Below, one piece after another: positions 31,274 to 56,324 of a stretch of 64,000 nt of DNA. The notes beneath the pieces are model-generated. The model did not search any database and was not told the origin of the DNA. It saw only the letters and a program-made list of their open reading frames with translations. Source of the stretch: Dehalococcoidia bacterium (GTDB taxonomy: Bacteria; Chloroflexota; Dehalococcoidia; Lucifugimonadales; UBA2962). The first letter of the stretch is position 1. Every line of letters starts with the position of its first letter. The translations under genes were made by a program, and so were the position numbers. Location of the stretch: positions 1,503,628 to 1,567,627 of the forward strand of contig OZ244723.1 in the NCBI GenBank assembly GCA_965219325.1, given 5' to 3'.

Positions 31274-33292
31274 TTGCGCAGGTATTCAAAGACCCTCCTG
31301 GTGATCGCGGCCCTTGTGCTGATCTCCGGGCTTACCCTGGGATTCCAGACGATACAGATACGGGGTTTTCTGCGCACCGGCGATAACCCGCTGGGCCTAA
31401 AGCTCGGACTCGATCTGCAGGGAGGCAGCCATCTCGTCTACGAGGCGGCGCTCACCGATGCCAGCGGCGAACGAATCCAGCCGACGGCCGAGCAGATGAG
31501 TTCCCTCAGGCAGATCATAGAGCGGAGGGCCAACCAGACCGGCCTGGGTGAGCCGATCATCCAGACGCTCGGCGAGGACCGCCTTCTCGTCCAGCTGCCG
31601 GGCGTGGACGATCCCGCCAGGGCCAAGGCGATCATAGGAGAGACGGCGCGGCTGGAGTTCAAGCACCGCCAGCTGGACGTACCGGTTCCGGTAGGGCTCG
31701 GCGACCAGAGCATCGTGTCGGTGACCATCGACGCATTCCCCGAGCCCGCCGCGGCGGAGGAGACGGGCGAAGCCGGGGAGGCCGGGGACCTTGCCGTCAG
31801 CGAGGATGCCGAGGTGATGGTCGGGTCCGAGGAGACCGAAGACCCTGCCGGCAGCGAAGATGCCGAGGTGATGGCCGGGCCTGGGGAGACCGAGGACCTC
31901 GCCGACAGCGAAGATGCCGAGGCGATGGCCGGGTCCGAGGAGGCCGAAGACCCTGCCGGCAGCGAGGATGCCGAGGCGATGGCCGGGCCTGGGGAGACCG
32001 AGGACCCTGCCGGCGGCGAGGATGCCGAGGCGATGGCCGAGGAAGAGGAGGTCGCCCTCGAGCCCGCGGTCCTGCTGGTCGAGTTCACCGACGAGGCCGC
32101 GGAGGTCTTCGACCAGATCCTCGAGCGTTTGTTGCAGTCGGCCATCACCTTCTTTTCGGGCGGCGGGGCGCAGCCGAACCGGATCCAGATAGATTTAGAC
32201 GGAGACGAGTTCACAACGCTCACCCTTCAGGCCGGTGCGGTCACCAGGGTCGAGGATACGAACGTGTTTGCGTTCGCGCTGCTGAATGCGACCGGTCAGC
32301 CGCTGGCTCCCACGATCGAGGAGACCAGGGCCATCTACGGCGAAAGCCCCGGGGTGAGCTTCGTCGAGATCTACGGGGCGTTCGACGACGACATCGGGCT
32401 GACTGGAGACGACCTTGCCAGGGCGTATGCGGGAACGCATCAGACCACCGGCCAGCCCATCGTCAACATCGAGTTCAACGCACAGGGCGCCCGCAGCTTT
32501 GGCGAGCTGACACAGCTGATCATCAACACCGACGACCGCATCGCCATATTCCTCGACGACGAGGAGCTGATCGCCCCCGCGGTGGACCAGGTGATCACCG
32601 GTGGCGCGGCCTTCATCCGGGGCGACTTCACCCCCGAGAGGGCCCAGGACATAGCCCAGCTTCTCGAGGCCGGACGCCTGCCCATTCCCATCGAGCTCGT
32701 GCAGGAGCGCGACGTCGACGCGATACTCGGTGCCGACTCGCTCAGAAAGAGCGTCGTGGCCGGTCTTGTGGGACTGGCGCTGGTGCTGGTCTTCATGGCC
32801 GCCTACTACAGGGTGCCCGGCCTGGTAGCCGCGGTGGCCCTGATCATCTACGGCGCGATCGTGCTCGCTGTCTTCAAGCTGATCCCGGTGACCCTGACCC
32901 TGTCGGGTGTTGCCGCGGCGATCCTATCGGTGGGCATGGCCGTCGACGCGAACATACTCATATTCGAACGCATGAAGGATGAGCTTCGCGCCGGCAGGAC
33001 GCTGCTCACCTCCATAAACATAGGCTTTAACCGCGCCTGGCCGGCGATCCGCGATGGCAACGTATCCACCCTCATCACCTGCGCAATCCTGTTCTGGTTC
33101 GCAGACACCCTGGGTGCCTCGGTGGTGCAGGGCTTTGCGGCCACGCTGGCCATAGGCGTGCTGATCAGCATGTTCTCGGCGATAGTCGTCAGCAGGACGC
33201 TGCTGCGCCTGCTGGCAACAACCGGCATATCGGATCGGGCGAGCTGGTTTACACCGGTGGGCAAGAGGTTCCTGCCCGAGGGAAGCCGCTAG
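31274..33292 (+). CDS. secD: Protein translocase subunit SecD with an acidic repeat insertion
   Basis: LGLDLQGG, VQLPG, AIFLD, GMAVDANILIFER and IRDGNVST. Confidence 0.95.
   Translation: MRRYSKTLLVIAALVLISGLTLGFQTIQIRGFLRTGDNPLGLKLGLDLQGGSHLVYEAALTDASGERIQPTAEQMSSLRQIIERRANQTGLGEPIIQTLGEDRLLVQLPGVDDPARAKAIIGETARLEFKHRQLDVPVPVGLGDQSIVSVTIDAFPEPAAAEETGEAGEAGDLAVSEDAEVMVGSEETEDPAGSEDAEVMAGPGETEDLADSEDAEAMAGSEEAEDPAGSEDAEAMAGPGETEDPAGGEDAEAMAEEEEVALEPAVLLVEFTDEAAEVFDQILERLLQSAITFFSGGGAQPNRIQIDLDGDEFTTLTLQAGAVTRVEDTNVFAFALLNATGQPLAPTIEETRAIYGESPGVSFVEIYGAFDDDIGLTGDDLARAYAGTHQTTGQPIVNIEFNAQGARSFGELTQLIINTDDRIAIFLDDEELIAPAVDQVITGGAAFIRGDFTPERAQDIAQLLEAGRLPIPIELVQERDVDAILGADSLRKSVVAGLVGLALVLVFMAAYYRVPGLVAAVALIIYGAIVLAVFKLIPVTLTLSGVAAAILSVGMAVDANILIFERMKDELRAGRTLLTSINIGFNRAWPAIRDGNVSTLITCAILFWFADTLGASVVQGFAATLAIGVLISMFSAIVVSRTLLRLLATTGISDRASWFTPVGKRFLPEGSR
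31787..32040 (+). repeat. 54-bp (18-aa) coding tandem repeat, about 4.7 copies
   Basis: Units start at 31787, 31841, 31895, 31949 and 32003. Consensus D(P/L)AGSEDAE(V/A)MAG(SEE/PGE)TE. Confidence 0.92.
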
Positions 33293-33307: not shown

Positions 33308-34222
33308 TTGGATATCGTTGGCAAAAGGGGCTGGCTCTTTCTCATATCGGCGATTCTGCTCGTCCCGGGGATTGTGTTTTTGATCATGGCCCCCGGCCTG
33401 CGGCCGGGCATCGACTTTACCGGCGGCAGCACCATCACCATAGAGTTCGCCGATCCGGTCGGGCAGCAGGAGTTGCGCAACGCCCTCGCCGACCTCCAAG
33501 TCGACGACGCCACGGTCCAGAACTTCGGCGACAACGTCTACTTCATCCGCACCAAGGAGCTCTCAGAGCAGGACAAGGAAGATCTGACCGGGGACCTTGA
33601 GACCGCCGTCTCACCCGGCGGCTCGAACGTCCTGGCGTTCGACCTGGTGTCCCCCGTCGTGGCCCAGGAGACCGTGTTAGCGGCCTTCTGGGCGGTATTT
33701 GCCGCCGCGATCGGCATATTCCTCTACGTGTGGTGGGCCTTTCGCAACGTCCCCAGCCCGTTCAGGTACGGCGCCGCCGCGATAGTGGCCCTCATACACG
33801 ACGCGGGCGTGATCCTCGGCATATTCGCCATCCTCGGCGTTGTCGCCGATGTCGAGGTGAACACGATGTTCCTGATCGCGCTCCTGACGGTGATCGGCTT
33901 CAGCGTAAACGACACCATCGTCGTGTTCGACAGGCTCAGGGAGAACATAGTCGCCGCCCCGACCAGGAGCCTTACGGCCAACATCAATCTGTCCATCTCC
34001 GAGACCCTGGGCCGGTCCGTGAACACCAGCATGACGCTGCTGTTCACGCTGCTGGCGCTGATGCTCTTCGGCGGGCCCACCCTCAGGGCCTTTCTCCTGG
34101 TGCTGCTGATCGGCGTCCTGGTCGGCACCTACAGCTCGATAGCCGTCGCCACCCAGACCCTCGCCGTCTGGGAGCAGAGGGACATCCCACGGCTGTACAG
34201 GCGCCTGAGGGGTCGCGCCTAG
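33308..34222 (+). CDS. secF: Protein translocase subunit SecF
   Basis: GIDFTGG, ALIHD, GFSVNDTIVVFDRLREN and GTYSS. Confidence 0.95.
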   Translation: MDIVGKRGWLFLISAILLVPGIVFLIMAPGLRPGIDFTGGSTITIEFADPVGQQELRNALADLQVDDATVQNFGDNVYFIRTKELSEQDKEDLTGDLETAVSPGGSNVLAFDLVSPVVAQETVLAAFWAVFAAAIGIFLYVWWAFRNVPSPFRYGAAAIVALIHDAGVILGIFAILGVVADVEVNTMFLIALLTVIGFSVNDTIVVFDRLRENIVAAPTRSLTANINLSISETLGRSVNTSMTLLFTLLALMLFGGPTLRAFLLVLLIGVLVGTYSSIAVATQTLAVWEQRDIPRLYRRLRGRA

Positions 34223-35100
34223 GGGTTCTCCACCCGGGAGGCGATGCCCTCCACCGTGGTCCACAGGTCCCTGGACTCATCGAGCGTTTCCGGTGTCTCG
34301 TCCGCGAAGGCGCTCCGTCCAACGAGCCTGTAGACGTCGGCCGCCGCGCCGTGAAAGCCGGGCGGCAGGCCCGCCGACTCGAAGGTCGCTGCGATCTCCT
34401 CCATCTCCCCGACCCAGCGCCGGGCCTTGACCGGCAGGGCCGGGACCTCGCCTCGCATGCGCTCGAGCCCGGCCGACTGGCTCTCGGCAAGCTCTCGGTC
34501 CAGCTCCGCGGCCACCCCCAACCGGATGGCCATCGTCAGCACGCCGACCGAGAGCGCGCTCGTTCCCTTGGTGAATCCGGCATAGCACATCTTGATCGCC
34601 GAGGCGGCTCCCGTGCGCGCGCCCATGTTCCTTACGACTATTCCCTGGCCGTCGAGACCGTCCATCAGGTGGGCGAAGGGGCCGCAGGTGTAAAAGCGCG
34701 GCGGAGAGCCCCTGCCGGGCGGCGGCCCGATTATCGAGGCGTCGATGTACCGGCTCCCAGCCTCCGCGATCGCCGACTCGATCCTGGCGCTGGTGGCCGG
34801 GGCGACCGCATTGCAGTCGGCGAACGTCACCGTGGCACCGGCGGCACTTGCGGCATGGGCGACCCTGCCGGCAAGCGGTTCGGCCTCCGACGGCACCAGG
34901 ATGGACAGGACCAGATCGGCCTGCTCCACCAGGTCCCGGAGGCGGCCGACGTCGGTGATGCCCGCCTCCTCGCTCAGCCCGCGGGTTCGCTCGCTGCGGC
35001 CGGCAAGGCAGGTTATGACCCGGTGTCCTGCCGCGCCAAGCTCCCTTCCCACCGCGTGGCCCATGTCTCCCGGGCTGAGGATCGCTATGGTCTGCGGCAC
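34219..35100 (-). CDS. NAD(P)-dependent oxidoreductase, 6PGDH/3-hydroxyisobutyrate dehydrogenase-like with DUF1932
   Basis: LSPGDMG, DCNAVAP, ASAIKMCYA and KARRWVGEMEEI. AAAGGAGG RBS. Confidence 0.85.
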   Translation of the reverse strand: MPQTIAILSPGDMGHAVGRELGAAGHRVITCLAGRSERTRGLSEEAGITDVGRLRDLVEQADLVLSILVPSEAEPLAGRVAHAASAAGATVTFADCNAVAPATSARIESAIAEAGSRYIDASIIGPPPGRGSPPRFYTCGPFAHLMDGLDGQGIVVRNMGARTGAASAIKMCYAGFTKGTSALSVGVLTMAIRLGVAAELDRELAESQSAGLERMRGEVPALPVKARRWVGEMEEIAATFESAGLPPGFHGAAADVYRLVGRSAFADETPETLDESRDLWTTVEGIASRVENP

Positions 35101-35168
35101 CGGGCGCCTCCTTTCCGCTGGGGTCTGTCGGGGCCTAGATTAGCGCGCATGTCCGTATAATCAAAGCC

Positions 35169-36038
35169 GTGCCAATGAAGATAGGGGCGCACGTCTCCGC
35201 TGCGGGAGGGGCCGACAAGGCCATAGATAACGCGCTGGAGATCGGCGCGGAGAGCATCCAGATATTCGCGTCATCGCCCCGGACCTGGTCCTTCAGGGCC
35301 CAGAAGCCGGGCGCGGTCGATGCGTTCAGGGAAAGGGCGCGGCAGACCGGTGTGGGACCCGCGTTCCTGCACGGAAGCTACCTGGTCAACCTGGGTGGCA
35401 ACCCCGAGCTGGCCGAAAAGTCGGTAGCATCCCTTACCAGCCACATGAACGCCGCGGCCGACCTGGGCGCCAGCGGTGTCATCTTTCACTCCGGCAGCCA
35501 CAAGGGCAGGGGATTCGACAACGTCCTGGACCAGGCCGTAAGGTGCCTTGCCCGGGTACTGGACGGCACGGCGGCCGAGACCTGGCTTATCATCGAGAAC
35601 AGCGCCGGCGCGGGCAACCACATCGGTGCGACCTTCAGCGAGATCGGCCGGATGATCGAGGCGATTGGCAGCGATCGCGTAAAGGTTTGCCTGGACACCC
35701 AGCACGCCTTTGCGGCCGGATACCGCATCACGGACCGCGACGGCCTCTACGCGGCGCTGGACGAGTTCGACGGGGCGATGGGTCTCGACAGGCTGGTGGC
35801 GGTCCATGCCAACGATTCCAAGACCGAGATGGGCTCAGGGGTGGACCGTCACGAGAACATCGGACACGGCCACATAGGCGAGCGGGGTTTTGCCAACATC
35901 ATGTCCCACCCGGCCTTTGCCAACGTCCCCTTTCTGCTCGAGGTTCCCGGAATCGAGGGAGGCGGCCCCGACAGGATCAACGTGGATGCCCTCAAGTCCA
36001 TAAGGGACATGGCGTCGGGCCGATGCCGGAGCCCTTGA
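35169..36038 (+). CDS. nfo: Endonuclease IV
   Basis: IGAHVS, HGSYLVNL, FHSGS, IENSAG, CLDTQH, HANDS and DRHENIG. Confidence 0.95.
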   Translation: MPMKIGAHVSAAGGADKAIDNALEIGAESIQIFASSPRTWSFRAQKPGAVDAFRERARQTGVGPAFLHGSYLVNLGGNPELAEKSVASLTSHMNAAADLGASGVIFHSGSHKGRGFDNVLDQAVRCLARVLDGTAAETWLIIENSAGAGNHIGATFSEIGRMIEAIGSDRVKVCLDTQHAFAAGYRITDRDGLYAALDEFDGAMGLDRLVAVHANDSKTEMGSGVDRHENIGHGHIGERGFANIMSHPAFANVPFLLEVPGIEGGGPDRINVDALKSIRDMASGRCRSP

Positions 36039-36078
36039 CCAATGAGTCGCCGCCCGGGAGGGGCGGCCAAACCACGCG

Positions 36079-36804
36079 ATGAACCCGGATGGCGCCGATC
36101 TCACGTCGGCCGCCCCGATGGGGGGCACCCAGGACGGCGGCGTCATTCGTGCCGCGGTCCTGGGCGTCAACGACGGCCTGGTTTCCAACTTCAGCCTGGT
36201 CATGGGGGTCGCCGGCGGGGTCGACAACGCCGACTTCGTGGTCATCGCGGGCGTGGCCGGCCTGCTCGCCGGCGCCTTCTCGATGGCCGGCGGCGAGTAC
36301 GTCTCCATGCGTTCTCAGCGCGAGATATACGAGAACCAGATCCGCCTTGCCGAGCGCAGGCTCAACGAGCGGCCGGCCGACAATGCCGAGGAGATAGCCC
36401 TCATATACGAGGCCAAGGGCCTGCCGCGGGCGGAGGCCGCGAGCGTGGCCGGCCACATAATGGGCAACACCCGGCTGGCCCTCGACACCATCGCGCGCGA
36501 GCAGCTCGGCCTGAACCCGGACGACCTGGGCTCGCCCTGGGGGGCGGCCGCCAGCTCCTTCGTCTCGTTCTCCGCCGGGGCGGTGCTGCCCATCCTCCCG
36601 TACCTGGCCGGGGCGGGCGGCCTTGCGTTCATACTGAGCGCCATCGTCAGCGCCGCAGGGCTGCTCGTTGTCGGTGGCGCAGTGTCGGTGGCCTCGAGCC
36701 GGGGCGTGATCTGGGGCGGGCTCAGGATGCTGCTGATAGGGGGCGCCGCGGCCGCGGTGACATTCGGCATCGGCACGCTGATAGGGGTGGAGGTGCTCGG
36801 TTGA
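36079..36804 (+). CDS. VIT1/CCC1 family Fe2+/Mn2+ transporter
   Basis: RAAVLGVNDGLVSN, GAFSMAGGEYVS, an acidic cytosolic loop and SF..GAVLP.LPY. Confidence 0.92.
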   Translation: MNPDGADLTSAAPMGGTQDGGVIRAAVLGVNDGLVSNFSLVMGVAGGVDNADFVVIAGVAGLLAGAFSMAGGEYVSMRSQREIYENQIRLAERRLNERPADNAEEIALIYEAKGLPRAEAASVAGHIMGNTRLALDTIAREQLGLNPDDLGSPWGAAASSFVSFSAGAVLPILPYLAGAGGLAFILSAIVSAAGLLVVGGAVSVASSRGVIWGGLRMLLIGGAAAAVTFGIGTLIGVEVLG

Positions 36805-37619
36805 CCGCCTCGATGCCCACGCTCCCGGTGGTCGAGGACATGGAGGAGTGGGCGGAGCGTTTCGAGGGCCGCTGGCTTGACCATGTCAGACGCAACGTGC
36901 TCGGCATCCCGGGCGCAGAACCGGACTGGAGCCTCTACGAGGGCCCGAGGAACCAGACCGCTCCCGCCGGACGCGCCGTGCGCCTGTCCGAGTCCCGGCT
37001 GGTCCTGGTCTCGTCCTCAGGCGCCTCCCTGAGGTCGCGAGGCGAGCCGTTCGATGCCGAGAACGTGCTGGGCGATCCCACCCTGCGCCTCATCCCGACG
37101 AGTGCGCCCCTGTCCGACGTCAGGTTCGACCACACCCACTATGACCACGGTGCGGTTGCGGCAGACCCTCAGGTGCAGCTTCCGCTCCGCCACCTCGAGG
37201 GAATGGCGGCCGATGGGCGGATTGGAGAGCTGGCCGAAAACGTGGTCAGCTTCAGCGGCTACCAGCCGGACGTACGGGCCGTGGCCGATTTGGTCGCGCC
37301 CGGGGTGCTGGCCGCCGCGAGGGACTTAAAGGCGGATGCCGCCCTGCTGGTGCCGGCCTGACCGATCTGCTGTCAGTCCGTCGGACTGATCGCAAGGCTC
37401 CTTGAGCAGGAGGGCATCGCAACCACCTTAACGAGCGCCGTCCCGGGCATGACAAGGCGCACGGCGCCTCCCCGCGCGACCTTCACTCGGCTGAAGACGG
37501 GAAGCATGCTCGGCGCCCCCAACGAACGGGCCCAGCAGATGCGCGTCCTTTGGGCCACGCTCTCCCTGCTCGAGCGCGACGCGCCGCTTGCGCCCGTAAA
37601 GCTGGAGGAGACGTGCTGA
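36801..37619 (+). CDS. PrdB/GrdB-family (D-proline/glycine reductase selenoprotein B-like) protein with Sec encoded by TGA 37359..37361
   Basis: Before the TGA: LSESRLVLVSSSG, GDPTLRLIP, HTHYD, G.IGELA and DAALLVPA. After it the frame stays open for 85 codons: PICCQSVGLIARLLEQEGIAT...PPRA...LEETC. GGAGG RBS 7 nt before TTG 36801; alternative ATG at 36813. Confidence 0.88.
37368..37394 (+). promoter_or_regulatory. Candidate bacterial SECIS hairpin
   Basis: TCAGTCC (37373-79), loop GTC, GGACTGA (37383-89) form a perfect 7-bp stem, with lower pairs TGC/GCA. The G-starting loop begins 18 nt after the UGA. Confidence 0.7.
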
Positions 37620-38596
37620 CCGGCCTGGTCCTCTACCACGGAATCGACTCGGGTGCCGAGCTGGCCGGGTACGCGCGGGCGGCCGAGCAAGCGGGCTTCG
37701 ATTCGATCTGGGTCACGGAGCGATACTTTCACGAGGAGACGTTCTCCCTTCTCGGACATCTCGCCGCATCGACCGATCGGATGGCGCTGGGCGTGGGCGT
37801 GGTAAACCCCTTTACCCGCCATCCGGCGCTCCTTGCGATGGCCGCGGCGACCGTCGACCGGCTCAGCGGAGGGCGCATGGTACTGGGCCTGGGGCGCAGT
37901 GATGAGTGGTTGATCAGGGACCGGCTCGGGCTCTCCTACAACAGATCGCTGAGCGAGCTTGAGCGGGCGGCGGGAACGGTAAGGGCCCTGCTGTCGGGAC
38001 AATCGGTCCGCATCGCCGACGGCACCGACCCAATCCGCCTGGCGGTGCCGCCGGTCCAGTCTCCTCCGAGGATATATCTTGCGGCCATAGGGCCCAGGGC
38101 GCTGCGACTTGCCGGGGCAATCGCCGACGGGGTGATCCTCAACGCCTACAGCCCTGTGGGCTACGTAGAGTGGGCCGTCGGCCAGATCCGCCTCGCCGCC
38201 GAGGGAGCGGGCCGCGATCCGGACGAAGTGGAGATCGCCTGCATGATCGTCGTGCGGCTCACAGACGACCCGGGCCCGCTGATGCCCGGACTCAGGCGGC
38301 GAATCGCAAGGTTGCTGGCCGAACCCGGGATGGGCCGGCTGCTGCTGGGCCGCGCCGGCCTTGATACGGGTATCGCCGATTCGGTGACCACGCTGGATGC
38401 CGCAGGCGAGTCGGCGGAGGCGGCCGCCCTGGTCCCTGACGAGCTGGTCGGCCGCATGTACGTCATGGGGAGCGCCGGCGAGTGTCTCGGGCGGCTCGGT
38501 GAGTACAGGCGCGCCGGGGTCACCCACCCTCTACTGCTTCCCCGTCTGGAGGATCTCGGGAGGGTGACCCGCGAACTCGGCCCCGGGGTGGCCTAG
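37613..38596 (+). CDS. LLM-class flavin/F420-dependent oxidoreductase (Mer-like)
   Basis: AEQAGFDSIWVTE, GVVNPFTRHP, SGGRMVLGLG and AIGPRALRLAGAIADG. GTG 37613 follows GGAGGAG. Confidence 0.9.
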   Translation: MLTGLVLYHGIDSGAELAGYARAAEQAGFDSIWVTERYFHEETFSLLGHLAASTDRMALGVGVVNPFTRHPALLAMAAATVDRLSGGRMVLGLGRSDEWLIRDRLGLSYNRSLSELERAAGTVRALLSGQSVRIADGTDPIRLAVPPVQSPPRIYLAAIGPRALRLAGAIADGVILNAYSPVGYVEWAVGQIRLAAEGAGRDPDEVEIACMIVVRLTDDPGPLMPGLRRRIARLLAEPGMGRLLLGRAGLDTGIADSVTTLDAAGESAEAAALVPDELVGRMYVMGSAGECLGRLGEYRRAGVTHPLLLPRLEDLGRVTRELGPGVA

Positions 38597-38618
38597 GCAG
38601 GGCCGGGGCCGCTTGCGG

Positions 38619-40214
38619 CTACGGGCCCGCCTTGCCCCTCCTGAGCGCCCGCCCGGGGTGGGCGCCGGTGTGTTCCCCGTGGTCCACTACGACCTCGCCG
38701 TTGACTATCACGTAGTCGACCCCGAGGGAGAACTGCTTCGGATCGAAGCGGGTCGCCGGGGCCGATATCCCCTCGTAGTCGAATACCACGATATCCCCCT
38801 TAAAGCCGTCGCGCAGCAGGCCCCGGTCGGGGATGTCCAGCCTCTGGGCCGCATATGAGGTCATCTTGCGGATCGCCTCGGGCAGGGAGATGCGGCCCTC
38901 CTCGCGGACGTACTTGGCGATGATGACGGGGAACGTCCCGTAGGCCATGGCCGGAGGATAGTCCCCCAAGAGCAGGGCGTCGCTCCCGATCATCTGCATC
39001 GGGTGCTCGACGAACATGGGTAGTGTCTCTGCGTCGATCGCCTCTGCGTGGAAGGAAACCTGCAGGTCCTCGTCCAGGCACAGATCGAACAGCGCCTCGA
39101 TCGGATCGGTTCCCATCATCTCGCCGGCCTGGGTGAGGGTCTTGCCCTCAAAGCGCTGGTTGTGAGGCTTTTTGAAGTAGGTGATCATCAGCGAATCCCA
39201 GCCGCCCCGGTGCCTTGCAAACCCGGAATGCATCTCCCGCTTCATCAGCGTCCGCGTCTCCGGATCGCGCAGTGCCTCCATTATCTTCTCCGGCCCCCCG
39301 TCGGCCGCCCACTGGGGCAAGAAATAGATCAGCCGGGTGCCCCCGTGCGAATAGGGAAAGCAGTCGAATGTGACATCCATCCCCTCCTTGTACCTGGCGC
39401 TCTCGACCAGCTCGAGGATCGGTCGACCGCCCTTGAAGTCTCCCTGTCCGGCCGGCAGCAGATGCGTGATGTGAACCGGCGAACCGCTGCGCCGGCCGAT
39501 CTCCAGAGCCTCCCGTTTCGGATCCAGGTAACCATCGCCGAGCGGGAAACGCTCATGCGTGTGATAGAACCCGCCCATTTCGGCGACGACCTCTGAGAGC
39601 TCAACCAGTTCGTCTGTATCCGCGTAGCTGCCCGGCGGGTAGTCAAGGCCGGTCGACATGCCGAAAGCGCCCTCCTCCATGCTCTCGCGGAGCAGGCCCT
39701 TTTGGCGGTCCATCTCCCCGGCGCTCGGCCTGCGGTTCCCCCAGCCCATCGCCCCGACGCGCAGCGGCGAGTTGCCCACGATGTAGGCCACGTTCACCGA
39801 GACCTTGCGGTCGTACATATCCAGGTACTCGGGTATGGTCGACCAGTAGCCCGGCAGATCGGGTGATCCCTCGAGGCCAGAATTTATCTGGATCATGCGC
39901 TTTAGGTCCTCAAGGTCGGCGAACGGGGCATAGGAGTTGCCGTCAATTCCCAGCAGCTCGGTGGTGATCCCCTGGTGCACCTTGGGAAGGTGGTCAGGGT
40001 CCGCCAGGATCATCAGGGCGGAGTGAGCGTGGACGTCGATGAAGCCGGGGCTGACCACTCGCCCGGTCGCATCGATCCTCTTGCCCGCGGCCACCTGCGA
40101 TACGTCACCCCGGAGCACCGAGACGGTGTTGTCCTTGACACCCACCGCGCCGGAAAAACCCGGGCTGCCCGTACCGTCGACGATCATTCCATTCTCAATT
40201 AGCAGGTCTAGCAT
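38619..40214 (-). CDS. N-acyl-D-amino-acid deacylase family amidohydrolase
   Basis: VDGTG, PGFIDVHAHS, GAFGMSTGLDY, HITH, IGSD, YGTFP and EAIRKMT. Confidence 0.9.
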   Translation of the reverse strand: MLDLLIENGMIVDGTGSPGFSGAVGVKDNTVSVLRGDVSQVAAGKRIDATGRVVSPGFIDVHAHSALMILADPDHLPKVHQGITTELLGIDGNSYAPFADLEDLKRMIQINSGLEGSPDLPGYWSTIPEYLDMYDRKVSVNVAYIVGNSPLRVGAMGWGNRRPSAGEMDRQKGLLRESMEEGAFGMSTGLDYPPGSYADTDELVELSEVVAEMGGFYHTHERFPLGDGYLDPKREALEIGRRSGSPVHITHLLPAGQGDFKGGRPILELVESARYKEGMDVTFDCFPYSHGGTRLIYFLPQWAADGGPEKIMEALRDPETRTLMKREMHSGFARHRGGWDSLMITYFKKPHNQRFEGKTLTQAGEMMGTDPIEALFDLCLDEDLQVSFHAEAIDAETLPMFVEHPMQMIGSDALLLGDYPPAMAYGTFPVIIAKYVREEGRISLPEAIRKMTSYAAQRLDIPDRGLLRDGFKGDIVVFDYEGISAPATRFDPKQFSLGVDYVIVNGEVVVDHGEHTGAHPGRALRRGKAGP

Positions 40215-40292: not shown

Positions 40293-41285
40293 CTACGACT
40301 TGCCCGGATCGGGCCGGGATCGCCCTACCATCTGCTCCTCGGAGAAGCGCTCCATGCGCTCTGTGACCTCGGATGCGGACTCTCCACGAAAGAGCACCTG
40401 GATCTGCCCCACGCCGGCCTCTTCGAACCGACCGATGTCCGAGGCCATGGCATCCGCGCCGCCGGTGAAGATCTGGCGCGAGCCGTCGGCCGCCAGCACC
40501 TTCCGGCCGGGGTCGAACATCATCTCGGCGTCCAGGATCACGTCCATGGCATCCGGGTCGCGTCCCTCCGCCTCCATGAGGTCGTGAAGGCGGGAGAGCG
40601 ACTCCCTCAGGCCGTCGACCGATCCGATCGCCGGGGGCCTGGGATGGGCGAACGGATACCACCCGTCGGCCAGCCTCGCGGCCCTGCGAAGGGCGGAGCC
40701 GCTCTCGCCTCCCATCCAGATGGGTGGGTGTGGCCTCTGGACAGGCTTGGGCAGAAAAGAGATGTTCGAGAAGCTGACCCAGTTCCCCGCGAACTCGGGA
40801 TGGTCCGCGGTCCAGAGCTCGACGAATGCGCGGAGGTACTCGTCGGTAACCGCCCCACGCCGCTCGAACGCGGGTGCGCCGAGTGCCTCGAACTCCTCCC
40901 TCATCCATCCCGCCCCGGCTCCCAGTATCAGCCGGCCCCTGGACAGGACGTCCATGGAGGCCAGGGCCTTTGCGGTGTGCACCGCGGGGCGGTACGGTAC
41001 CACCATGACCGAGGTGAGCAGTCTTATGCTCCGGGTGCGGGCGGCGACGAATGCCATCACCGTGAGCTGGTCAAGGTACTCGACGTCGGACGAGCCGAAC
41101 AGCGTTCCCGGGTACCGTCCCTTCTCGTTGTACGGATAGTCCGAGCTGATCGACCTTGGTATGACCACATGGTCGCTCACGGAGGCGAACTCAAAGCCGA
41201 GCTCCTCCCCCCGGCGCGCGATCAGCCCCATGGACTCCGGTCTGGCCAGTGGACCGCGCGTCGGCAAGGGGAACCCGAATTTCAT
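40293..41285 (-). CDS. LLM-class probable F420-dependent oxidoreductase (Rv2161c-like)
   Basis: SDHVVIP, TSVMVVPYR, GAGWMREEFEALG, PKPVQRPHPPIWMGG and DGWYP. Confidence 0.9.
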   Translation of the reverse strand: MKFGFPLPTRGPLARPESMGLIARRGEELGFEFASVSDHVVIPRSISSDYPYNEKGRYPGTLFGSSDVEYLDQLTVMAFVAARTRSIRLLTSVMVVPYRPAVHTAKALASMDVLSRGRLILGAGAGWMREEFEALGAPAFERRGAVTDEYLRAFVELWTADHPEFAGNWVSFSNISFLPKPVQRPHPPIWMGGESGSALRRAARLADGWYPFAHPRPPAIGSVDGLRESLSRLHDLMEAEGRDPDAMDVILDAEMMFDPGRKVLAADGSRQIFTGGADAMASDIGRFEEAGVGQIQVLFRGESASEVTERMERFSEEQMVGRSRPDPGKS

Positions 41286-42459: not shown

Positions 42460-43428
42460 CTATTCTCCCACCAGCGGCCGGACGTTCTCGGCGAACCGCT
42501 GCATCTGCTCAAGGGTGGCGTTTGGGGAGGCCGCGTCGACCTCGAAGCCGAACATCACGCATTTTGCCCCGCTCGCCTTGTAGGCCCGGATGTCGGAGGC
42601 AATCTGCTCGGCGCTCCCGGTGAACACCCGTCTTGCGCCGTCCCTGCCCGTGTGCTCCCGGCAGTCGTCGTAGATGTTGATGGCGAAGGAAATCTCGATC
42701 GTGTCCGGGTCGCGGCCCTCGCCCTCTGCGACCTGCCTCATCTGGGCCACTCCGCCTGCGAAGCGTTCTGCGGTATCGAGTGGATTGCGGGGGTTGTCGA
42801 TGATGGGGAACCAGGCGTCGCCGACCCTTGCCGTCCTGCGCAGCGCGGGCATGCTCTCGCCACCCACCCAGATGGGCGGATGAGGCCTCTGGAGCGGCTT
42901 GGGTTCGAATGCGATATCCGAGTAGGAGGCATATCTGCCGGCGTAGGACGGCTCTTGTTCCGTCCACAGGTTCTTAAAGATGCGTATGTACTCCTCTGTC
43001 ACCGAGCCCCTCTGCTCGTACGGCGGCCTGCCCAGCGCCTCGAACTCCTCTCGCATCCATCCCGCTCCGCAGCCCACTATCACGCGGCCGTCGGACAATA
43101 CGTCCGCGGTTGCCAGTATCTTCGCCGTCAGCACCGGGTCGCGGTAGGGTACGACCATAACCGAGGTGAGCAGCTTTACGGTCGACGTTCGGGAAGCTAG
43201 GAAGCTGAGCACGGTCAGCTGCTCAAGGTAGTCGCCCGTGTCCCCGAACTCGTTGAACTGGCCCGTGTCGGTGTACGGGTAGCGAGAATCTATGGAAAGG
43301 GGCATTACGACGTGGTCGTTTACCCACATCACCTCAAAGCCCAGCTTCTCTCCTGTCGCTGCAAGAACAGACAGGTTCTCCGGGTCTGCGAAGATGCCCT
43401 GGGCCAGTGCACCGAAAGCGTACTGCAT
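42460..43428 (-). CDS. LLM-class probable F420-dependent oxidoreductase (paralogue of 40293..41285)
   Basis: NDHVVMP, TSVMVVPYR, GAGWMREEFEALG and PKPLQRPHPPIWVGG. Confidence 0.9.
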   Translation of the reverse strand: MQYAFGALAQGIFADPENLSVLAATGEKLGFEVMWVNDHVVMPLSIDSRYPYTDTGQFNEFGDTGDYLEQLTVLSFLASRTSTVKLLTSVMVVPYRDPVLTAKILATADVLSDGRVIVGCGAGWMREEFEALGRPPYEQRGSVTEEYIRIFKNLWTEQEPSYAGRYASYSDIAFEPKPLQRPHPPIWVGGESMPALRRTARVGDAWFPIIDNPRNPLDTAERFAGGVAQMRQVAEGEGRDPDTIEISFAINIYDDCREHTGRDGARRVFTGSAEQIASDIRAYKASGAKCVMFGFEVDAASPNATLEQMQRFAENVRPLVGE

Positions 43429-50239: not shown

Positions 50240-50592
50240 ATTTCCTCCTTCGCTGGCCGCCCGCTCAGGATCGGCGAAACCCGATCTGGCGCCAGTATTT
50301 TATGGCGATCAAGGTGTGCGGGAAAGCGAACCGCGGGCAGGTTCGGCAGGGAAGAGGGCACCCGCCCCGAAGGCGGTCTGCGCCGAATCGAGTGTCAGCG
50401 GCCGTTAGCTGGCACAATTGTCTGGCCGGCACCGGTCCGCCCGGACCCGTCATCCGGCTGGTAATCGATGGCGAAACGGATAACGGACCGGGACATGCGG
50501 CCGTTATACCTACAAGCCACGCTAAAAGGATCCGATAGATGGAAGGAATGATCGAATGGCGTCACGTCAGTCGGGACGCGACTGGCAACGCG

Positions 50593-51585
50593 ATGAGCCG
50601 CACGGAGATCCAGGAGATGAACCTCAGGGTCGAGCAGGAGGGGCTCTTCCTGAGGGACCTGATGGCCGAGGTGGGTAAGCAGGTGGTGGGACAGACGGAG
50701 ATGGTCGAAAGGGTGCTCGTTGCGCTCCTTACCGGCGGTCACATTCTCCTTGAGGGCGTTCCGGGCCTTGCCAAGACGCTCATGGTAAAGACGCTCGCCG
50801 AGGCCATAACCGCGGGATTCTCCCGGATCCAGTTCACGCCGGACCTCCTGCCGGCCGACCTGCTCGGCACACAGATCTACAGCCCCAAGACGAGCGAGTT
50901 CAGCATCCACCGCGGCCCGATCTTCGCCAACATCGTGCTGGCCGACGAGGTCAACCGTGCGCCGGCGAAGGTCCAGAGCGCGCTCCTTGAGGCCATGCAG
51001 GAGCGCCAGGTAACGATAGCCGACCAGACCTTTGCCCTGGACGACCCCTTCCTCGTCCTGGCGACCCAGAATCCGATCGAGCACGAGGGCACCTATCCGC
51101 TTCCGGAGGCCCAGGTCGACCGCTTCATGCTGAAGGTAATAGTCGAGTATCCCTCCCGGTCAGAGGAGAGGAGGATCGTGGACCTGATGGCGGTCGGGGA
51201 GCCCGAGCAGATCCACCCGGCCGTGGACGCGGAGGCGATACTGCGGGCGCGGGAGGCGGTCCGCCGAATATACGTCGACGAGCGCATCACCGAGTACGTG
51301 CTCGACCTGGTCCTGGCGACGCGCGACCCGGAGGGCCACGGGATGAAGGACCTGCGCGGGCTGATCGCCTACGGGGCCTCGCCCCGGGCCAGCATATATC
51401 TGGTCACCGCCGCCCGGGCGTACGCCTTCCTCAGGGGCAGGGGATACGTGATCCCCGACGACGTAAAGCAGATCGCTCTCGACGTCCTCAGGCACCGGGT
51501 GATCACCACCTACGAGGCGGAGGCCACCGACGTGGACGGAACGAGTATCGTCGGGCGCATCCTCGATACCGTCGAGGTGCCATAG
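50593..51585 (+). CDS. moxR: MoxR family AAA+ ATPase
   Basis: GVPGLAKT, RIQFTPDLLPAD, LADEVNR, ATQNPIE and EAQVDRF. Confidence 0.95.
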   Translation: MSRTEIQEMNLRVEQEGLFLRDLMAEVGKQVVGQTEMVERVLVALLTGGHILLEGVPGLAKTLMVKTLAEAITAGFSRIQFTPDLLPADLLGTQIYSPKTSEFSIHRGPIFANIVLADEVNRAPAKVQSALLEAMQERQVTIADQTFALDDPFLVLATQNPIEHEGTYPLPEAQVDRFMLKVIVEYPSRSEERRIVDLMAVGEPEQIHPAVDAEAILRAREAVRRIYVDERITEYVLDLVLATRDPEGHGMKDLRGLIAYGASPRASIYLVTAARAYAFLRGRGYVIPDDVKQIALDVLRHRVITTYEAEATDVDGTSIVGRILDTVEVP

Positions 51586-51593
51586 CCGGCCGG

Positions 51594-52520
51594 ATGCTGC
51601 CCGCAGAACTGCTAAAGACGGCCCGCCGGATCGAGGTGCGAACGCGGAGGCTCGTCGATGAGTCCTTCGCCGGCCACTACCAGTCCACCTTCCGCGGGCA
51701 GGGCATCGAGTTCAGCGAGGTGCGTCCCTACCAGTCGGGAGACGACGTTCGGACCATCGACTGGAACGTGACGGCGCGGATGGGCAGTCCCTACGTAAAG
51801 CGATTCGTCGAGGAGCGGGAACTGACCGTAATGATCGCCGTCGACGCCAGCGGCTCGGGCGATATAGGCACGGTCGATCGCCTCAAGCGCGAGCTTGCCG
51901 TGGAGCTGGCGGCGGTGATCTCCTTTGCGGCAACCACCAGCAACGACCGCGTGGGCCTGGCGCTGTTCACCGACGAGATAGAGCAGTTCGTGCCGCCCCG
52001 AAAGGGCAGAAAGCACGTCATGCGGCTGGTCGCGGACCTGCTGTCCTTTTCTCCGGCCGGTACCGGGACCGATGTGGGAGGCGCGCTGGACTTTCTAACC
52101 GCCGTCAGCAGGCGGCGGAGCGTCATCTTCCTGGTCTCTGACTTTCTCGTGCCGGCCGACAGCTACGCCAGGCAGCTCAAGATCGCATCGCGCAAGCACG
52201 ACGTGGTTGCGGTGGATCTTCACGACCCGCTCGAGAGCGCGCTGCCCGAGATCGGTCTTGTCACGCTCGAGGACGCAGAGACCGGCGAGACGGCCCTGGT
52301 GGACACATCCGACCCCCTGTGGAGGCGAGAGCTGGGCGAAAGGCTCGAGGCCGCCGGCGACCGCCGGCGCGGCGCGTTCAGGTCCGCGGGCGTGGACCGG
52401 ATCGCCGCGACAACCGGTCGCGACTACGTTCCCGGCCTGATCGATTTCTTCGCCAGGAGAGCCCGCCGCGCCGGCCGGACGCGCCGCACGGCAGCGTCCG
52501 TTTCCGCGGTGCAGCGGTGA
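51594..52520 (+). CDS. DUF58 protein
   Basis: GIEFSEVRPY..GDDVRTIDWNVTAR, EEREL and SDF. Confidence 0.92.
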   Translation: MLPAELLKTARRIEVRTRRLVDESFAGHYQSTFRGQGIEFSEVRPYQSGDDVRTIDWNVTARMGSPYVKRFVEERELTVMIAVDASGSGDIGTVDRLKRELAVELAAVISFAATTSNDRVGLALFTDEIEQFVPPRKGRKHVMRLVADLLSFSPAGTGTDVGGALDFLTAVSRRRSVIFLVSDFLVPADSYARQLKIASRKHDVVAVDLHDPLESALPEIGLVTLEDAETGETALVDTSDPLWRRELGERLEAAGDRRRGAFRSAGVDRIAATTGRDYVPGLIDFFARRARRAGRTRRTAASVSAVQR

Positions 52521-53530
52521 GCGCCTCATCGGTGGGCCACCTGAACAGGGCGCTCTTGCCGAAGGCGCTGGGAGCCGGATTGCTCGTGACGCTCACGCTC
52601 CTGGCGTTCGGGACCGGCGCGGCCGGGGCGCAGGGGCCAGTGGAGGCGCATCTCTCCGTCTCGCCGGACGAGCTGGTGATCGGCGATGTCCTCGTGGTGA
52701 CGGCGTCTGTGGATCACCCCGCCGGCCACACCGTCGGCCCCCTCAAGCTCGAGGACAACTGGGGTCCTTTCGAGGTGAGGGCACTGCGGGCTCCGGTGAC
52801 CGTCGCCAACGACGACGGCTCAGAGACGACCTCCGTCACCTTCGAGGCGCAGGTCTTTGCGCTCGGCCAGCTCACCACCCCTGAGCTCAGCCTCACCGTT
52901 CAGTCGCCCACGGGCGCCCAGAGCATTGCCGTGGCGGCTCCGGTCACCGTAGAGGTCGTCACCGTGCTTCGGGACAGCGAGCTTCGCGACATCAGGCCCC
53001 AGGTGGATCTGCCCGGCCCCAGGACCGGCCTGGTTGCGGGCCTTGCGATCGGCGGCCTTGCGATCGTGGCGATCACGTTCCTGGCCTACTCGAGAGCGAG
53101 CCGACGCCGCGGCCCGCTCCCGTTCGGCCGCGCGGGAGGATCGCGGTCGCCGTACGAGTGGGCCATCTCGGAGCTTTCGGGGATGAGTCATCTCGGCCTC
53201 GAGGAAGCGGAGGACCTAAGGCGGTACTACACGCAGGTCTCGGAGGTACTGCGCCGCTACATCGATGCCGAATTCGGTCTCGAAACCATCGAGAGCACGA
53301 CGGCGCAGGTGTCTCGTCAGATAAAAAGGAGCGGGCTTGAGTGGAAGCTCGGTCACAGGGTGCTCTCCCTTCTTCTGGTGGCAGACCTGGTCAAGTTTGC
53401 CCGGTACCGGCCCACCCCGGGCGAGGTGCAGACCCTCGTGCCGGACACCATCGAGGTCATAGATGACCTGCACCGGGAATCCGCCAAGTCCCCGCCCGAG
53501 CGAGGCCCGGCCGAGGTGGACGCGAGGTGA
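52517..53530 (+). CDS. Bat-operon membrane protein (BatD-like N-terminal domain)
   Basis: Signal-like N-terminus, beta-rich domain, LRDIRP, TM helix, LRRYI...ESTT and ADLVKFAR. GTG overlaps the DUF58 stop. Confidence 0.75.
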   Translation: MSASSVGHLNRALLPKALGAGLLVTLTLLAFGTGAAGAQGPVEAHLSVSPDELVIGDVLVVTASVDHPAGHTVGPLKLEDNWGPFEVRALRAPVTVANDDGSETTSVTFEAQVFALGQLTTPELSLTVQSPTGAQSIAVAAPVTVEVVTVLRDSELRDIRPQVDLPGPRTGLVAGLAIGGLAIVAITFLAYSRASRRRGPLPFGRAGGSRSPYEWAISELSGMSHLGLEEAEDLRRYYTQVSEVLRRYIDAEFGLETIESTTAQVSRQIKRSGLEWKLGHRVLSLLLVADLVKFARYRPTPGEVQTLVPDTIEVIDDLHRESAKSPPERGPAEVDAR

Positions 53531-54510
53531 CGTTTTCCTTCGCGTCCCCCGAGGTCCTGATAGCGCTGCTGGCGCTGCCCCTGCTCGCCGCCGCGAGCTG
53601 GGTGTACGCAAACCGGCTGCGCAAGCCGGCCGTCCGATACCCCAGCCTCAGCCTCGCGCCTTCGGCGAGGCGTCGGTCTTGGCGCGTCTACTCCGGCCAC
53701 ATCCTGCTGGCCCTGCGGCTGGCGGCACTGGCGCTGCTGATCGTTGCCCTTGCGCGCCCGCAGACCGGCAGCGCCCGGGAGATCGTCAGGGGCGAGGGCG
53801 TGGACATCGCACTCGCCCTGGACATCTCCGGCAGCATGGGCGCGCGGGACCTGGGTCCGGGCGGCCGCATAGAGGCCGCCAAGTCCGCCATCGCCGACTT
53901 CGTCGCCGAGCGCGAGCACGACCGCATCGGCCTGGTGGTCTTCGCGGAGGAGGCCTTCCTGCAGGCGCCGCCCACCCTGGACCACGGGGTGCTGCTGAGC
54001 CTTGCGGAGCGGGTGGGGCTGGCCAAGTCCGTGGGCGTAAGGGACGGTACGGCGATAGGCATGGGTCTGGCAACGGCCGCGACCATGCTCAAGGACTCGG
54101 ACGTGGAGAGCAAGGTGATAGTGCTGCTGACCGACGGGGTGAACAACGCAGGCGCGATTGACCCGCTCACGGCCGCGGCCGCAGCCGAGGCGCTGGATAT
54201 CAGGGTGTACACCATCGGCGTCGGGCGGCCCACCGCGTCCGACTTCGGGGGACTGGGCAGCAGTGCCGACCTCGACGAGGAGACCCTGCGCGGGATCGCC
54301 GGGCTCACCGGCGGACGGTACTACAGGGCTGTGGACCCGGAGGGGCTGTCCAGGATCTACGACGAGATCAGCCAGCTGGAAAAGTCGGAGATCGAGACGC
54401 TGTCCTTCAGCAACAAGAGGGAATGGGCCGGCTGGATCATGATCCCGGCGCTGGCGCTCCTCGTCGGGGAGCTCGGGCTGCGGCGCACCCTGCTGAGGAC
54501 CCTGCCCTAG
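53527..54510 (+). CDS. batA: BatA VWA-domain protein
   Basis: F..P N-terminal TMs, ALARPQ, MIDAS DISGS, GTAIG and LLTDGVNNAG. Confidence 0.85.
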   Translation: MTFSFASPEVLIALLALPLLAAASWVYANRLRKPAVRYPSLSLAPSARRRSWRVYSGHILLALRLAALALLIVALARPQTGSAREIVRGEGVDIALALDISGSMGARDLGPGGRIEAAKSAIADFVAEREHDRIGLVVFAEEAFLQAPPTLDHGVLLSLAERVGLAKSVGVRDGTAIGMGLATAATMLKDSDVESKVIVLLTDGVNNAGAIDPLTAAAAAEALDIRVYTIGVGRPTASDFGGLGSSADLDEETLRGIAGLTGGRYYRAVDPEGLSRIYDEISQLEKSEIETLSFSNKREWAGWIMIPALALLVGELGLRRTLLRTLP

Positions 54511-54512
54511 AC

Positions 54513-55541
54513 ATGTCTTTCGGCCATCCCCTGCTGCTGATCGCCCTGCTTGCGGTTCCGGCCGCAGCGGTCCTGGTCGCCTGGGCGGCCGGACGGCGCC
54601 GCCACGCCCTTGGAACGCTGGCCGAGCCGCACCTGATCGGCGGCCTGCTCGCCGGCATAAGCGGTGCCGGCAGGCGGTGGCGCCTGGGCCTTTGGGCGGT
54701 GGCGGTCGCCTTCCTGGTGCTCGCTTTGGCCAGGCCCCAGTGGGGTGAGCGCGAGGTGCTGGTCGAACAGGAAGGCGTGCAGGTCATGGTGGCTCTGGAC
54801 GTGTCGGCCAGCATGCTCGCCCAGGACGTTAGGCCGGACCGCCTGTCCCGGGCAAAGCTGGAGCTGATCGATCTGATGGACCGGCTGGATGGTGACGAGG
54901 TCGGACTGGTGCTGTTCTCCGGCGCCGCCTTCGTACAGCTTCCCCTCACCTCGGACTACCTGACCGCCAGACGCTTTCTGGACGCCGCCAGTACCGAGTC
55001 GATATCGCGCCCCGGCACCGTCATAGGGATGGCCATCCAGATGGCCTCGGCGGCATTCGACCAGGAACGCGAGGGCGCGAAGGTGATCCTGCTGATGACC
55101 GACGGCGAGGACTCGGAAACCGATCCGGTGGCGGCCGCCCGCGAGGCCGCAAGCCAGGGAATAACGATCTTCGCCGTGGGCTTCGGCTCACCGGACGGCC
55201 ATCCGGTGCCCGAACTGGACAGGTACGGCAACGTGGTCGGCCTGAAGACGGACAGTCGCGGAAATCAGGTCCTTTCCCGCCTTGACGAGGCGACCCTCAG
55301 GGACGTCGCCGAGGCCGGCGGGGGTGGCTATCTCGGTCTGAGTGGGGCGGCTCCGACGATAGCAGCCGAGATCGACGCCCTGCAGGCCGGCAGGCTCGAG
55401 AGCAGGGTGGAGACGCAGCACATAGAGAGGTTCCAGATCTTCCTTGCAATCGCGGTTCTCGCCCTGATCGCCGCCGAGCTGATACCGGAATCGACACTCG
55501 GCGGGACGCCCCGCGCGGTGAGAAATTGGCTCCGGCGTTGA
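54513..55541 (+). CDS. batB: BatB VWA-domain protein
   Basis: ALARPQWG, DVSASM..DV.PDRL, PLTSDY, TDGE and SRLDEATL. Confidence 0.85.
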   Translation: MSFGHPLLLIALLAVPAAAVLVAWAAGRRRHALGTLAEPHLIGGLLAGISGAGRRWRLGLWAVAVAFLVLALARPQWGEREVLVEQEGVQVMVALDVSASMLAQDVRPDRLSRAKLELIDLMDRLDGDEVGLVLFSGAAFVQLPLTSDYLTARRFLDAASTESISRPGTVIGMAIQMASAAFDQEREGAKVILLMTDGEDSETDPVAAAREAASQGITIFAVGFGSPDGHPVPELDRYGNVVGLKTDSRGNQVLSRLDEATLRDVAEAGGGGYLGLSGAAPTIAAEIDALQAGRLESRVETQHIERFQIFLAIAVLALIAAELIPESTLGGTPRAVRNWLRR

Positions 55542-55600
55542 ATTCCAAATTGACCGGTTGCGGCCTCGGGAAAAAGTCCGCCGGGCCGATCGGGCTGCCG

Positions 55601-56323
55601 ATGAAGTTGCCGGTTGCCAGGGCCTTGCGGGGAATGCTGGCGTTTGCAACCGGGGTAGGGGCGGTCCTTTCGATTCTCTCGGCGGCGGCCTGCGCGTCGC
55701 CCCAGAGCGAGCTGGTTGGCCAGGGCAACGAGGCCTTTGAGCAGGGCGATTTTGATGCCGCAACGCAGAGGTACCAGTGGGCGGAGGTTGAGGCGCCGGA
55801 TACGTCGGAGCCGTACTACAACGCGGGGAACTCGCTGCTGCGCCAGGACAGGGCTGAGGAGGCCGCAAGGCACCTTGAGCAGGCCCTTGGGAGCGCCGGC
55901 CATGAGCTCGGCGCCGATGCCGCGTTCAACCTTGGGAACGCCTATTTTGAGTCCGGAGACTACGCCGCGGCGATCGAGGCGTATGCCGACAGCCTCAGAC
56001 GCGCCCCCGAGGAGATGGATGCCAAGCATAACCTTGAGCTCGCCCTGCAGAGGATGCAGCAGGATCAGGTCGAGGCCGAGGAAAGCCCGGATCCAGTGGA
56101 TCAGAGTGACGGCGAGGATGAAGATCAGCCGGACCCGCAGCAGCAGCGGGAGGAAGACCAGGCAGGTGACGAGACCGAGTCGTCGCTTACCGAGCAGCAG
56201 GAAGTGCTGACCGAGGAGCAGGCACACCGGTTGCTGGAGGCCCTGTCCCAGGACGCAGAGACCCTGGAGCAGCGCCTGCAGTTCGGCACCGGCCGGTCGC
56301 TGGAACCCGCACAGGACTGGTAG
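55601..56323 (+). CDS. batC: BatC-like TPR protein
   Basis: YNAGN, FNLGNAYF and DAKHNLELA, an acidic Gln-rich tail and terminal DW. Start uncertain (55526, 55601 or later). Confidence 0.75.
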   Translation: MKLPVARALRGMLAFATGVGAVLSILSAAACASPQSELVGQGNEAFEQGDFDAATQRYQWAEVEAPDTSEPYYNAGNSLLRQDRAEEAARHLEQALGSAGHELGADAAFNLGNAYFESGDYAAAIEAYADSLRRAPEEMDAKHNLELALQRMQQDQVEAEESPDPVDQSDGEDEDQPDPQQQREEDQAGDETESSLTEQQEVLTEEQAHRLLEALSQDAETLEQRLQFGTGRSLEPAQDW

Positions 56324-56324
56324 C

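Follow-up and report, generated by a model that had tools for sequence, protein, structure and literature searches.

An orphan PrdB-like selenoprotein gene within an nfo-VIT1-LLM gene order of a Dehalococcoidia bacterium

Do four genes that lie on one strand, overlap at two of their junctions and follow a single promoter-like hexamer also form one functional system? This question is raised by a locus in the marine-type genome of a Dehalococcoidia bacterium (GTDB lineage Chloroflexota; Dehalococcoidia; Lucifugimonadales; UBA2962), in which genes for endonuclease IV (nfo), a VIT1/CCC1-family membrane protein, a PrdB-like selenoprotein and a luciferase-like (LLM) oxidoreductase stand in a row. 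We analysed the window around it, a stretch of 64,000 nucleotides of GenBank assembly GCA_965219325.1 (contig OZ244723.1, positions 1,503,628 to 1,567,627 of the forward strand). Unless a genome locus is named, coordinates count from the first nucleotide of the window, and all features of the block are on its forward strand. A preliminary description of the locus had proposed a candidate new system, built on a stand-alone selenocysteine (Sec) redox enzyme that may be paired with a flavin/F420 reductase or belong to an oxidative/iron-stress module. We found that the gene cluster had been read correctly and that its orphan selenoprotein is genuine, though of an already known kind; a functional system was not supported. 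In our judgement the locus is best explained, with good though not overwhelming probability, as a vertically inherited gene order that holds a PrdB-like selenoprotein acting solo, the four genes not being one machine.

All four genes were confirmed at their positions by Pfam and NCBIfam matches. The first, nfo (35169-36038), encodes an apurinic/apyrimidinic (AP) endonuclease and matches TIGR00587 with 226.3 bits (cut-off 129.65, E 4.3e-67) and PF01261 (AP_endonuc_2, E 2.4e-48); an ATG at 35175 is an alternative to its GTG start. After a gap of 40 nt follows the VIT1/CCC1-family gene (36079-36804), whose product, a putative Fe/Mn transporter, has the VIT1 domain only and covers profile positions 1-214 of 214 in PF01988 (E 2.6e-65, 220.7 bits, gathering score 28.1). 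The selenoprotein gene (36801-37619, TTG start) encodes 272 residues with Sec at position 187 (U187). The last gene (37613-38596, GTG start) encodes a luciferase-like flavin/deazaflavin oxidoreductase that matches PF00296 (E 3.9e-61, 207.6 bits, gathering score 27.9). Both reported overlaps are present in the sequence and are preceded by Shine-Dalgarno-like motifs: the VIT1 stop (36802-36804) overlaps the selenoprotein TTG at 36801, with GGAGG 7 nt 5' of the TTG, and the selenoprotein stop (37617-37619) overlaps the LLM GTG at 37613, with GGAGGA 5' of the GTG. The upstream neighbour, a DUF1932/NAD-binding dehydrogenase gene (34219-35100), is divergent and the downstream one, an amidohydrolase gene (38619-40214), is convergent, so the four genes form one block.

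The -10-like hexamer TATAAT is located at 35156-35161, as reported, in the divergent intergenic region upstream of nfo, and is spaced 7 nt from the nfo GTG and 13 nt from the ATG at 35175. A transcript that starts from it would therefore be leaderless or nearly so. A consensus scan of 34900-38800 detected neither a -35 element matching this hexamer nor a complete two-hexamer promoter, and terminator-like sites were not found either. The four genes probably constitute one transcription unit in this species, yet not one machine.

The selenoprotein gene is genuine and its product is made by UGA recoding under the direction of a downstream hairpin. With the in-frame TGA at 37359-37361 read as Sec, the motif is LVPA-U-PIC-CQSVGL, in which U187-P-I-C190 has the UxxC form. 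A scan of one genome per species yielded 73 loci encoding relatives, and the codon could be placed in 72 of them. Most of the loci belong to Chloroflexota (Dehalococcoidia, Anaerolineae, Caldilineae, Chloroflexia, Ardenticatenaceae), and a few are labelled Calditrichaeota, Acidobacteriota, Neomarinimicrobiota, Myxococcota, Lentisphaeria, Krumholzibacteriia or Enterobacteriaceae. The Sec codon is conserved across them: it is TGA in 65 of the 72 assessable loci and a Ser or Gly codon in the other 7 (L072, L079, L081, L093, L095, L100, L104), and a Cys codon occurs in none. Past the TGA the frame is kept, and its remaining 85 codons show 35-92% identity across the 72 loci. C190 is at least 90% conserved, and C190, Q192, G195, R199 and the PPR stretch 223-225 are invariant or nearly so. 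The family is large (2493 library representatives at E <=0.001); in the wider library, 39 representatives with a recognisable motif include 9 with CxxC and 10 with S/GxxC, besides other variants. Public gene calls for the family mostly end at the UGA, and entries of 173-186 residues dominate the homologue list; the databases therefore hold chiefly truncated N-terminal fragments.

An RNA element accompanies the codon. The hairpin at 37373-37389 consists of a 7-bp stem (37373-37379 with 37383-37389) closed by the loop GUC, with a possible outer stem (37368-37370 with 37392-37394). The stem starts 14 nt after the UGA, follows the pattern CAGUCC-GUN-GGACUG plus one flanking pair, and overlies the codons of the invariant protein motif QSVGL. 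In the alignment of 66 TGA-bearing sequences, 87% of the cells are paired, compared with 27-37% when the partners are slid. Pair 15-31 is UA in 30 sequences, CG in 17 and GC in 8, and pair 18-28 is GC in 53 and AU in 8. Compensatory changes occur in 4 pairs of the hairpin, and 0 of 500 shuffles reach the covariation score. A single-sequence fold of the region gives a z of only -1.55, which is weak alone, and a permissive scan with Rfam matched no family in 34000-40000; the selenocysteine insertion sequence (SECIS) is therefore established via covariation. No such hairpin is predicted for the 7 loci whose codon is not TGA, though the protein motif there is similar. A covarying hairpin that is absent from the predicted fold of the Ser/Gly forms is the signature of a bacterial SECIS, and the locus offers a clean example of such a hairpin embedded in an invariant protein motif.

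The genome also has the means to decode the codon. It is a single contig of 3.25 Mb, 96.7% complete, and encodes tRNA-Sec, SelA, SelB and SelD, with all three proteins scoring above their cut-offs. The selD gene (G000:C1:2421791-2422711, L003) itself bears one in-frame TGA, and SelD is probably a selenoprotein too. That the TGA is a real stop, giving a truncated protein of 186 residues followed by non-coding or decayed sequence, agrees with where the public gene calls end. This reading has next to no probability when set against the conserved codons past the TGA, the covarying hairpin, the Sec machinery and a full-length structural model that is confident in the C-terminal part.

If the protein is a genuine selenoprotein, is it a subunit of a known reductase? 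Its best NCBIfam match is PrdB (TIGR04483, E 7.6e-27), and the score of 94.3 bits is below the cut-off of 300. Matches to PF07355 (GRDB; 16.6 bits, gathering score 22) and TIGR01918 (17.1 bits, cut-off 65.45) are also below threshold; a precomputed PF07355 match is present in many homologues of about 50% identity. The homology to PrdB and to GrdB/GrdF/GrdH (PF07355) extends over residues ~61-258, and Sec occupies an equivalent place in a UxxC motif in PrdB and GrdB, as tabulated in a review (PMC13188914). Unlike these proteins, the selenoprotein scores far below every curated cut-off, and unlike PrdB it carries an extra N-terminal helix region (residues 1-60) outside the PrdB model. On these profile scores the protein belongs to the fringe of the GrdB/PrdB superfamily and is not a PrdB.

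The best match and the UxxC motif are what could make the protein a B subunit in a genuine Stickland-type reductase, with the pyruvoyl and electron-transfer subunits encoded elsewhere. The reported absence of prdA, grdE, grdA, proline racemase and thioredoxin genes from the window was borne out: among 54 window open reading frames (7 + 47; at least 100 amino acids, chosen greedily), Pfam detected no member of the Gly_reductase, GRDA, proline racemase or thioredoxin families, a scan that a small thioredoxin might escape. The genome-wide search for prdA/grdE that the preliminary description had advised revealed no partner either. The GrdE/PrdA pyruvoyl family PF09338 has 0 matches in the genome. 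When run on 201 genomes of the phylum, the same search detected the family in 8 (one of them, G098, unpublished), so the negative carries weight. GrdA (PF04723) likewise has 0 matches, in a search whose power is unproven since its control matched in no genome. Thus, unlike PrdB and GrdB, the selenoprotein has no pyruvoyl subunit or prd/grd operon match in its genome, and Stickland-type C-N cleavage as carried out by PrdAB or GrdBE is therefore not possible. Moreover, unlike the Stickland fermenters that have PrdB and GrdB, the host genome is rich in oxygen-using flavoenzyme paralogues. With a score of 94 bits against 300 and the partner subunit missing from a nearly complete single-contig genome, a role as a Stickland B subunit is highly improbable, and the earlier idea of a stand-alone Sec redox protein is supported.

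The genome encodes just one other relative, and this too is an orphan, which also speaks against a Stickland complex. This second PrdB-like selenoprotein gene (G000:C1:435443-436009, L002:1393-2202) shares 34% identity with the first and has one in-frame TGA within the motif LVPA-U-PVC-HQSVGL (UPVC). It is followed by a gene for an M24/creatinase-type peptidase, but such a neighbour was not found in the ~1.4 kb flanks of the other paralogue-type loci and so offered no lead.

Does the selenoprotein then depend on the genes beside it? The preliminary description had advised a check of short PrdB-like proteins across Chloroflexota for co-occurrence with LLM or VIT1. We took the 73 homologous loci with flanks of at most 6 kb and divided them into 8 near kin (7 of the own genus and 1 with a SAR202 cluster label) and 65 others. 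All 8 near-kin loci have nfo and VIT1 upstream of the selenoprotein gene. In the 65 others, tblastn with the window proteins over 6 kb found VIT1 in 0/65, nfo in 0/65 and an LLM in 1/65, with 28% identity and at a distance of 5.3 kb. In an all-against-all clustering of reading frames of at least 90 residues, the most recurrent neighbour was one family that reached 8 of the 65 loci. The immediate neighbours (124 references, of which 4 were dropped as running off their loci) include no VIT1, AP_endonuc_2 or Bac_luciferase protein among the 120 scanned with Pfam. They are heterogeneous, including metallo-beta-lactamase, cyclophilin, major facilitator superfamily (MFS), SurE and ATP-binding cassette (ABC) transporter proteins, as well as single thioredoxin-TPR, AhpC and MerA-like proteins. 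Co-occurrence thus fails outside the near kin, and the selenoprotein family is without a conserved partner gene.

Gene order among close relatives gave the same answer from the other direction. An ortholog of the selenoprotein is present in 8 of the 9 other genomes of the genus. The complete order nfo-VIT1-selenoprotein-LLM-amidohydrolase recurs in the four closest genomes (87-90% identity). Two further genomes (G005, G002) have nfo-VIT1-selenoprotein followed by a methyltransferase gene on the opposite strand and no LLM, and G006 has no LLM within 1.5 kb after a truncated selenoprotein gene. In G001, of the same genus, nfo-VIT1-LLM occurs without an ortholog: the LLM is 73% identical, its match begins 23 nt after the VIT1 match, and the only selenoprotein match, a paralogue of 36% identity, lies elsewhere in the genome. 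In the sister genus, three genomes (G010, G012, G013) have secF-nfo-VIT1-LLM-amidohydrolase, with LLM proteins of 47-49% identity and no selenoprotein match anywhere in the genome. In G015, of family f2, and the SAR202-labelled locus L103, nfo-VIT1 alone is kept, so that this adjacency spans three families (own family f1, f2 and that of L103). Each of the four combinations thus occurs, and the conserved element is nfo-VIT1, to which the own family adds LLM-amidohydrolase. A dedicated system of the selenoprotein with LLM, VIT1 or nfo finds no support, as the adjacency breaks in both directions and nfo-VIT1-LLM is intact without the selenoprotein in 4 genomes; loss of the adjacency in related genomes is what the preliminary description had named as a refutation. 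The order secF-(dehydrogenase)-nfo-VIT1-LLM-amidohydrolase is probably the older, vertically inherited one in this Dehalococcoidia family, and the orphan PrdB-like gene sits between VIT1 and LLM in one genus only.

Some selenoprotein genes look damaged: that of G002 (L014/L064) contains a frameshift and a TAA, that of G006 (L015/L102) a frameshift and a truncation, and in G016 (L016/L103) a remnant covers residues 131-270, with a TAG and Tyr in place of C190. Such damage could be real decay or assembly error in metagenome-assembled genomes.

The pairing suggested earlier is that the LLM feeds reduced flavin or F420H2 to the Sec centre, as a two-component reductase for reductive cleavage of a substrate. 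The stop/start overlap of the two genes, the Shine-Dalgarno motif inside the selenoprotein gene and the retention of this arrangement in the four closest genomes argue for it. The comparison of genomes argues the other way, with the LLM directly after VIT1 in four genomes without the ortholog and not adjacent in G005, G002, G006 and all 65 distant loci. Moreover, the genome has 31 PF00296 matches, so the LLM neighbour is weak evidence. Three LLM genes lie within a 6-kb part of the window (37613-38596, 40293-41285 and 42463-43428), interleaved with amidohydrolase and aldo-keto reductase genes, which likewise lowers the weight of the adjacency. The number of matches resembles the expansions of FMN/F420-dependent monooxygenases in SAR202, for which many paralogues (FMNO; FMN, flavin mononucleotide) have been reported (PMC5395668); that study draws no link between LLM proteins and selenoproteins.

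As to the cofactor, the best NCBIfam matches of the LLM are of the Mer/F420 type, and they are below threshold (171.4 bits against a cut-off of 276, and 166 against 348.7), as are all 25 NCBIfam models listed for it, including the F420-specific ones (Mer, TIGR03555/NF002619). A cofE gene (F420-0:gamma-glutamyl ligase) is present at G000:C1:1047206-1047970 (L110:8207-8986), with 251.8 bits against a cut-off of 180.65; it is isolated, with no cof gene nearby and an IS1182-family transposase gene about 3.6 kb away. Searches for cofD and cofH gave 0 matches in the genome, with working controls. F420 is thus a candidate cofactor, and FMN is at least as likely. LLM enzymes oxidise or reduce small substrates, and to our knowledge they are not known as protein-disulfide reductases. 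Taking into account also that, of three F420-synthesis markers sought, cofE was found and cofD and cofH were not, we regard a two-component reductase as quite improbable.

Could the four genes instead serve one oxidative/iron-stress module, in which a selenol antioxidant and a flavoenzyme join AP-site repair and Fe export, with all of them co-regulated from one promoter? The nfo-VIT1 adjacency across three families and the lack of internal terminator-like sites are consistent with this, and UxxC selenoproteins are typically described as antioxidant or redox enzymes (PMC13188914, PMC2398784). The selenoprotein is, however, dispensable for the cluster, which is intact without it, and its gene looks broken in three relatives (G002, G006 and G016/L103). 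Common descent by itself would keep gene order alike in close relatives, and no regulator or stress-responsive site was identified. A stress module of this kind is unlikely.

Three observations weigh against a selenoprotein that merely resides in an inherited gene order and cycles as a simple redox enzyme. The overlapping junctions on both sides of its gene are kept in the four closest genomes, as would be expected of co-translated, possibly interacting proteins, so that a lineage-specific partnership is possible. In each of the 8 congeners with a selenoprotein gene, VIT1 lies next to it. Furthermore, the Sec site is occupied by Ser or Gly, not Cys, in 7 genomes and several metagenome homologues that retain C190, and a simple U/C-xx-C redox cycle therefore fits poorly. 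Conceivably, one SAR202-related genus recruited the orphan UxxC selenoprotein into a pre-existing nfo-VIT1-LLM stress operon, where it became translationally coupled on both sides and has the LLM or the metal transporter as its partner. The recruited protein might, for example, reduce a thiol that is oxidised or bound to metal, or else an oxidised product. We give such a recruitment a slim chance. If it were true, it would provide the first functional context for PrdB-like selenoproteins common in Chloroflexota of the oxic ocean, and an instance of GrdB/PrdB-type chemistry without a pyruvoyl subunit.

Returning to a selenoprotein that works on its own within an inherited gene order, what might it do? 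An AlphaFold2 model from a 47-sequence alignment has a mean predicted local distance difference test (pLDDT) score of 95.1 and a predicted template modelling (pTM) score of 0.93, and is confident through the C-terminal part beyond the UGA. It presents an N-terminal helix and an alpha/beta sandwich, with U187 and C190 between strand 180-184 and helix 188-203. Sequence searches of the PDB with the single protein or the 47-sequence profile found no relative, and Foldseek against the PDB returned nothing at E <=0.001. The best match in a wide VIA-align search, to LacI/periplasmic-binding-type domains, has a Z of 8.7 (root-mean-square deviation 3.1, 137 aligned); this is at the tool's stated noise level, and we assign no fold family. 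In the model, the protein would share with small UxxC/CxxC oxidoreductases (Trx-like, Prx-like, DsbA-like) a nucleophilic Sec at a helix start and a resolving Cys at +3. Unlike these proteins, it is predicted to be an alpha/beta sandwich and not a thioredoxin fold; solved look-alikes reach Z 7-8.7, the noise level.

By analogy, the selenoprotein is most likely a UxxC selenol/thiol oxidoreductase that works alone. In the cycle we infer from the motif and from GrdB/PrdB and other UxxC selenoproteins, Sec187 at the helix start would attack an oxidised or electrophilic substrate, and Cys190 would resolve this adduct, leaving a selenenylsulfide. Thioredoxin or another general thiol reductant would then regenerate the selenoprotein.

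How new is such a protein? PrdB and GrdB are tabulated as UxxC families with the typical operons prdB-prdC and grdA-grdB in a 2026 review (PMC13188914). Earlier work has already recorded PrdB-type selenoproteins beyond the clostridial operons: in a survey of surface-ocean metagenomes of the Global Ocean Sampling (GOS), 'proline reductase PrdB' is among the most abundant selenoprotein families, with 235 Sec and 110 Cys forms in its Table 2 (PMC2398784). The GOS family, which may include this exact subfamily, has the same Pfam assignment and UxxC motif as our protein, and the part of the survey that treats this family gives no neighbourhood, function or mention of PrdA. A literature search, which did not cover the supplementary tables of selenoproteome papers, found no account of the function or neighbourhood of the PrdB-like subfamily. 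Matches on PrdB-like/GrdB-like proteins concern fluoroacetate metabolism in Synergistota and were set aside as not relevant. What the locus contributes is a well-documented case of a widespread PrdB-like selenoprotein family, whose lack of a partner directs attention to the protein and not to the operon. The proposed new system is not a unit and should not be pursued as one.

Two further features of the window lie outside the block. The periplasmic part of the SecD protein encoded at 31274-33292 contains a long acidic insert made of near-repeats of the type EDPAGSEDAEAMAG in translation. At 50539-58846, genes for a MoxR-type AAA ATPase, two VWA/BatA-like proteins, TPR proteins and a BatD-like protein stand in a row that resembles a Bat-type aerotolerance operon.

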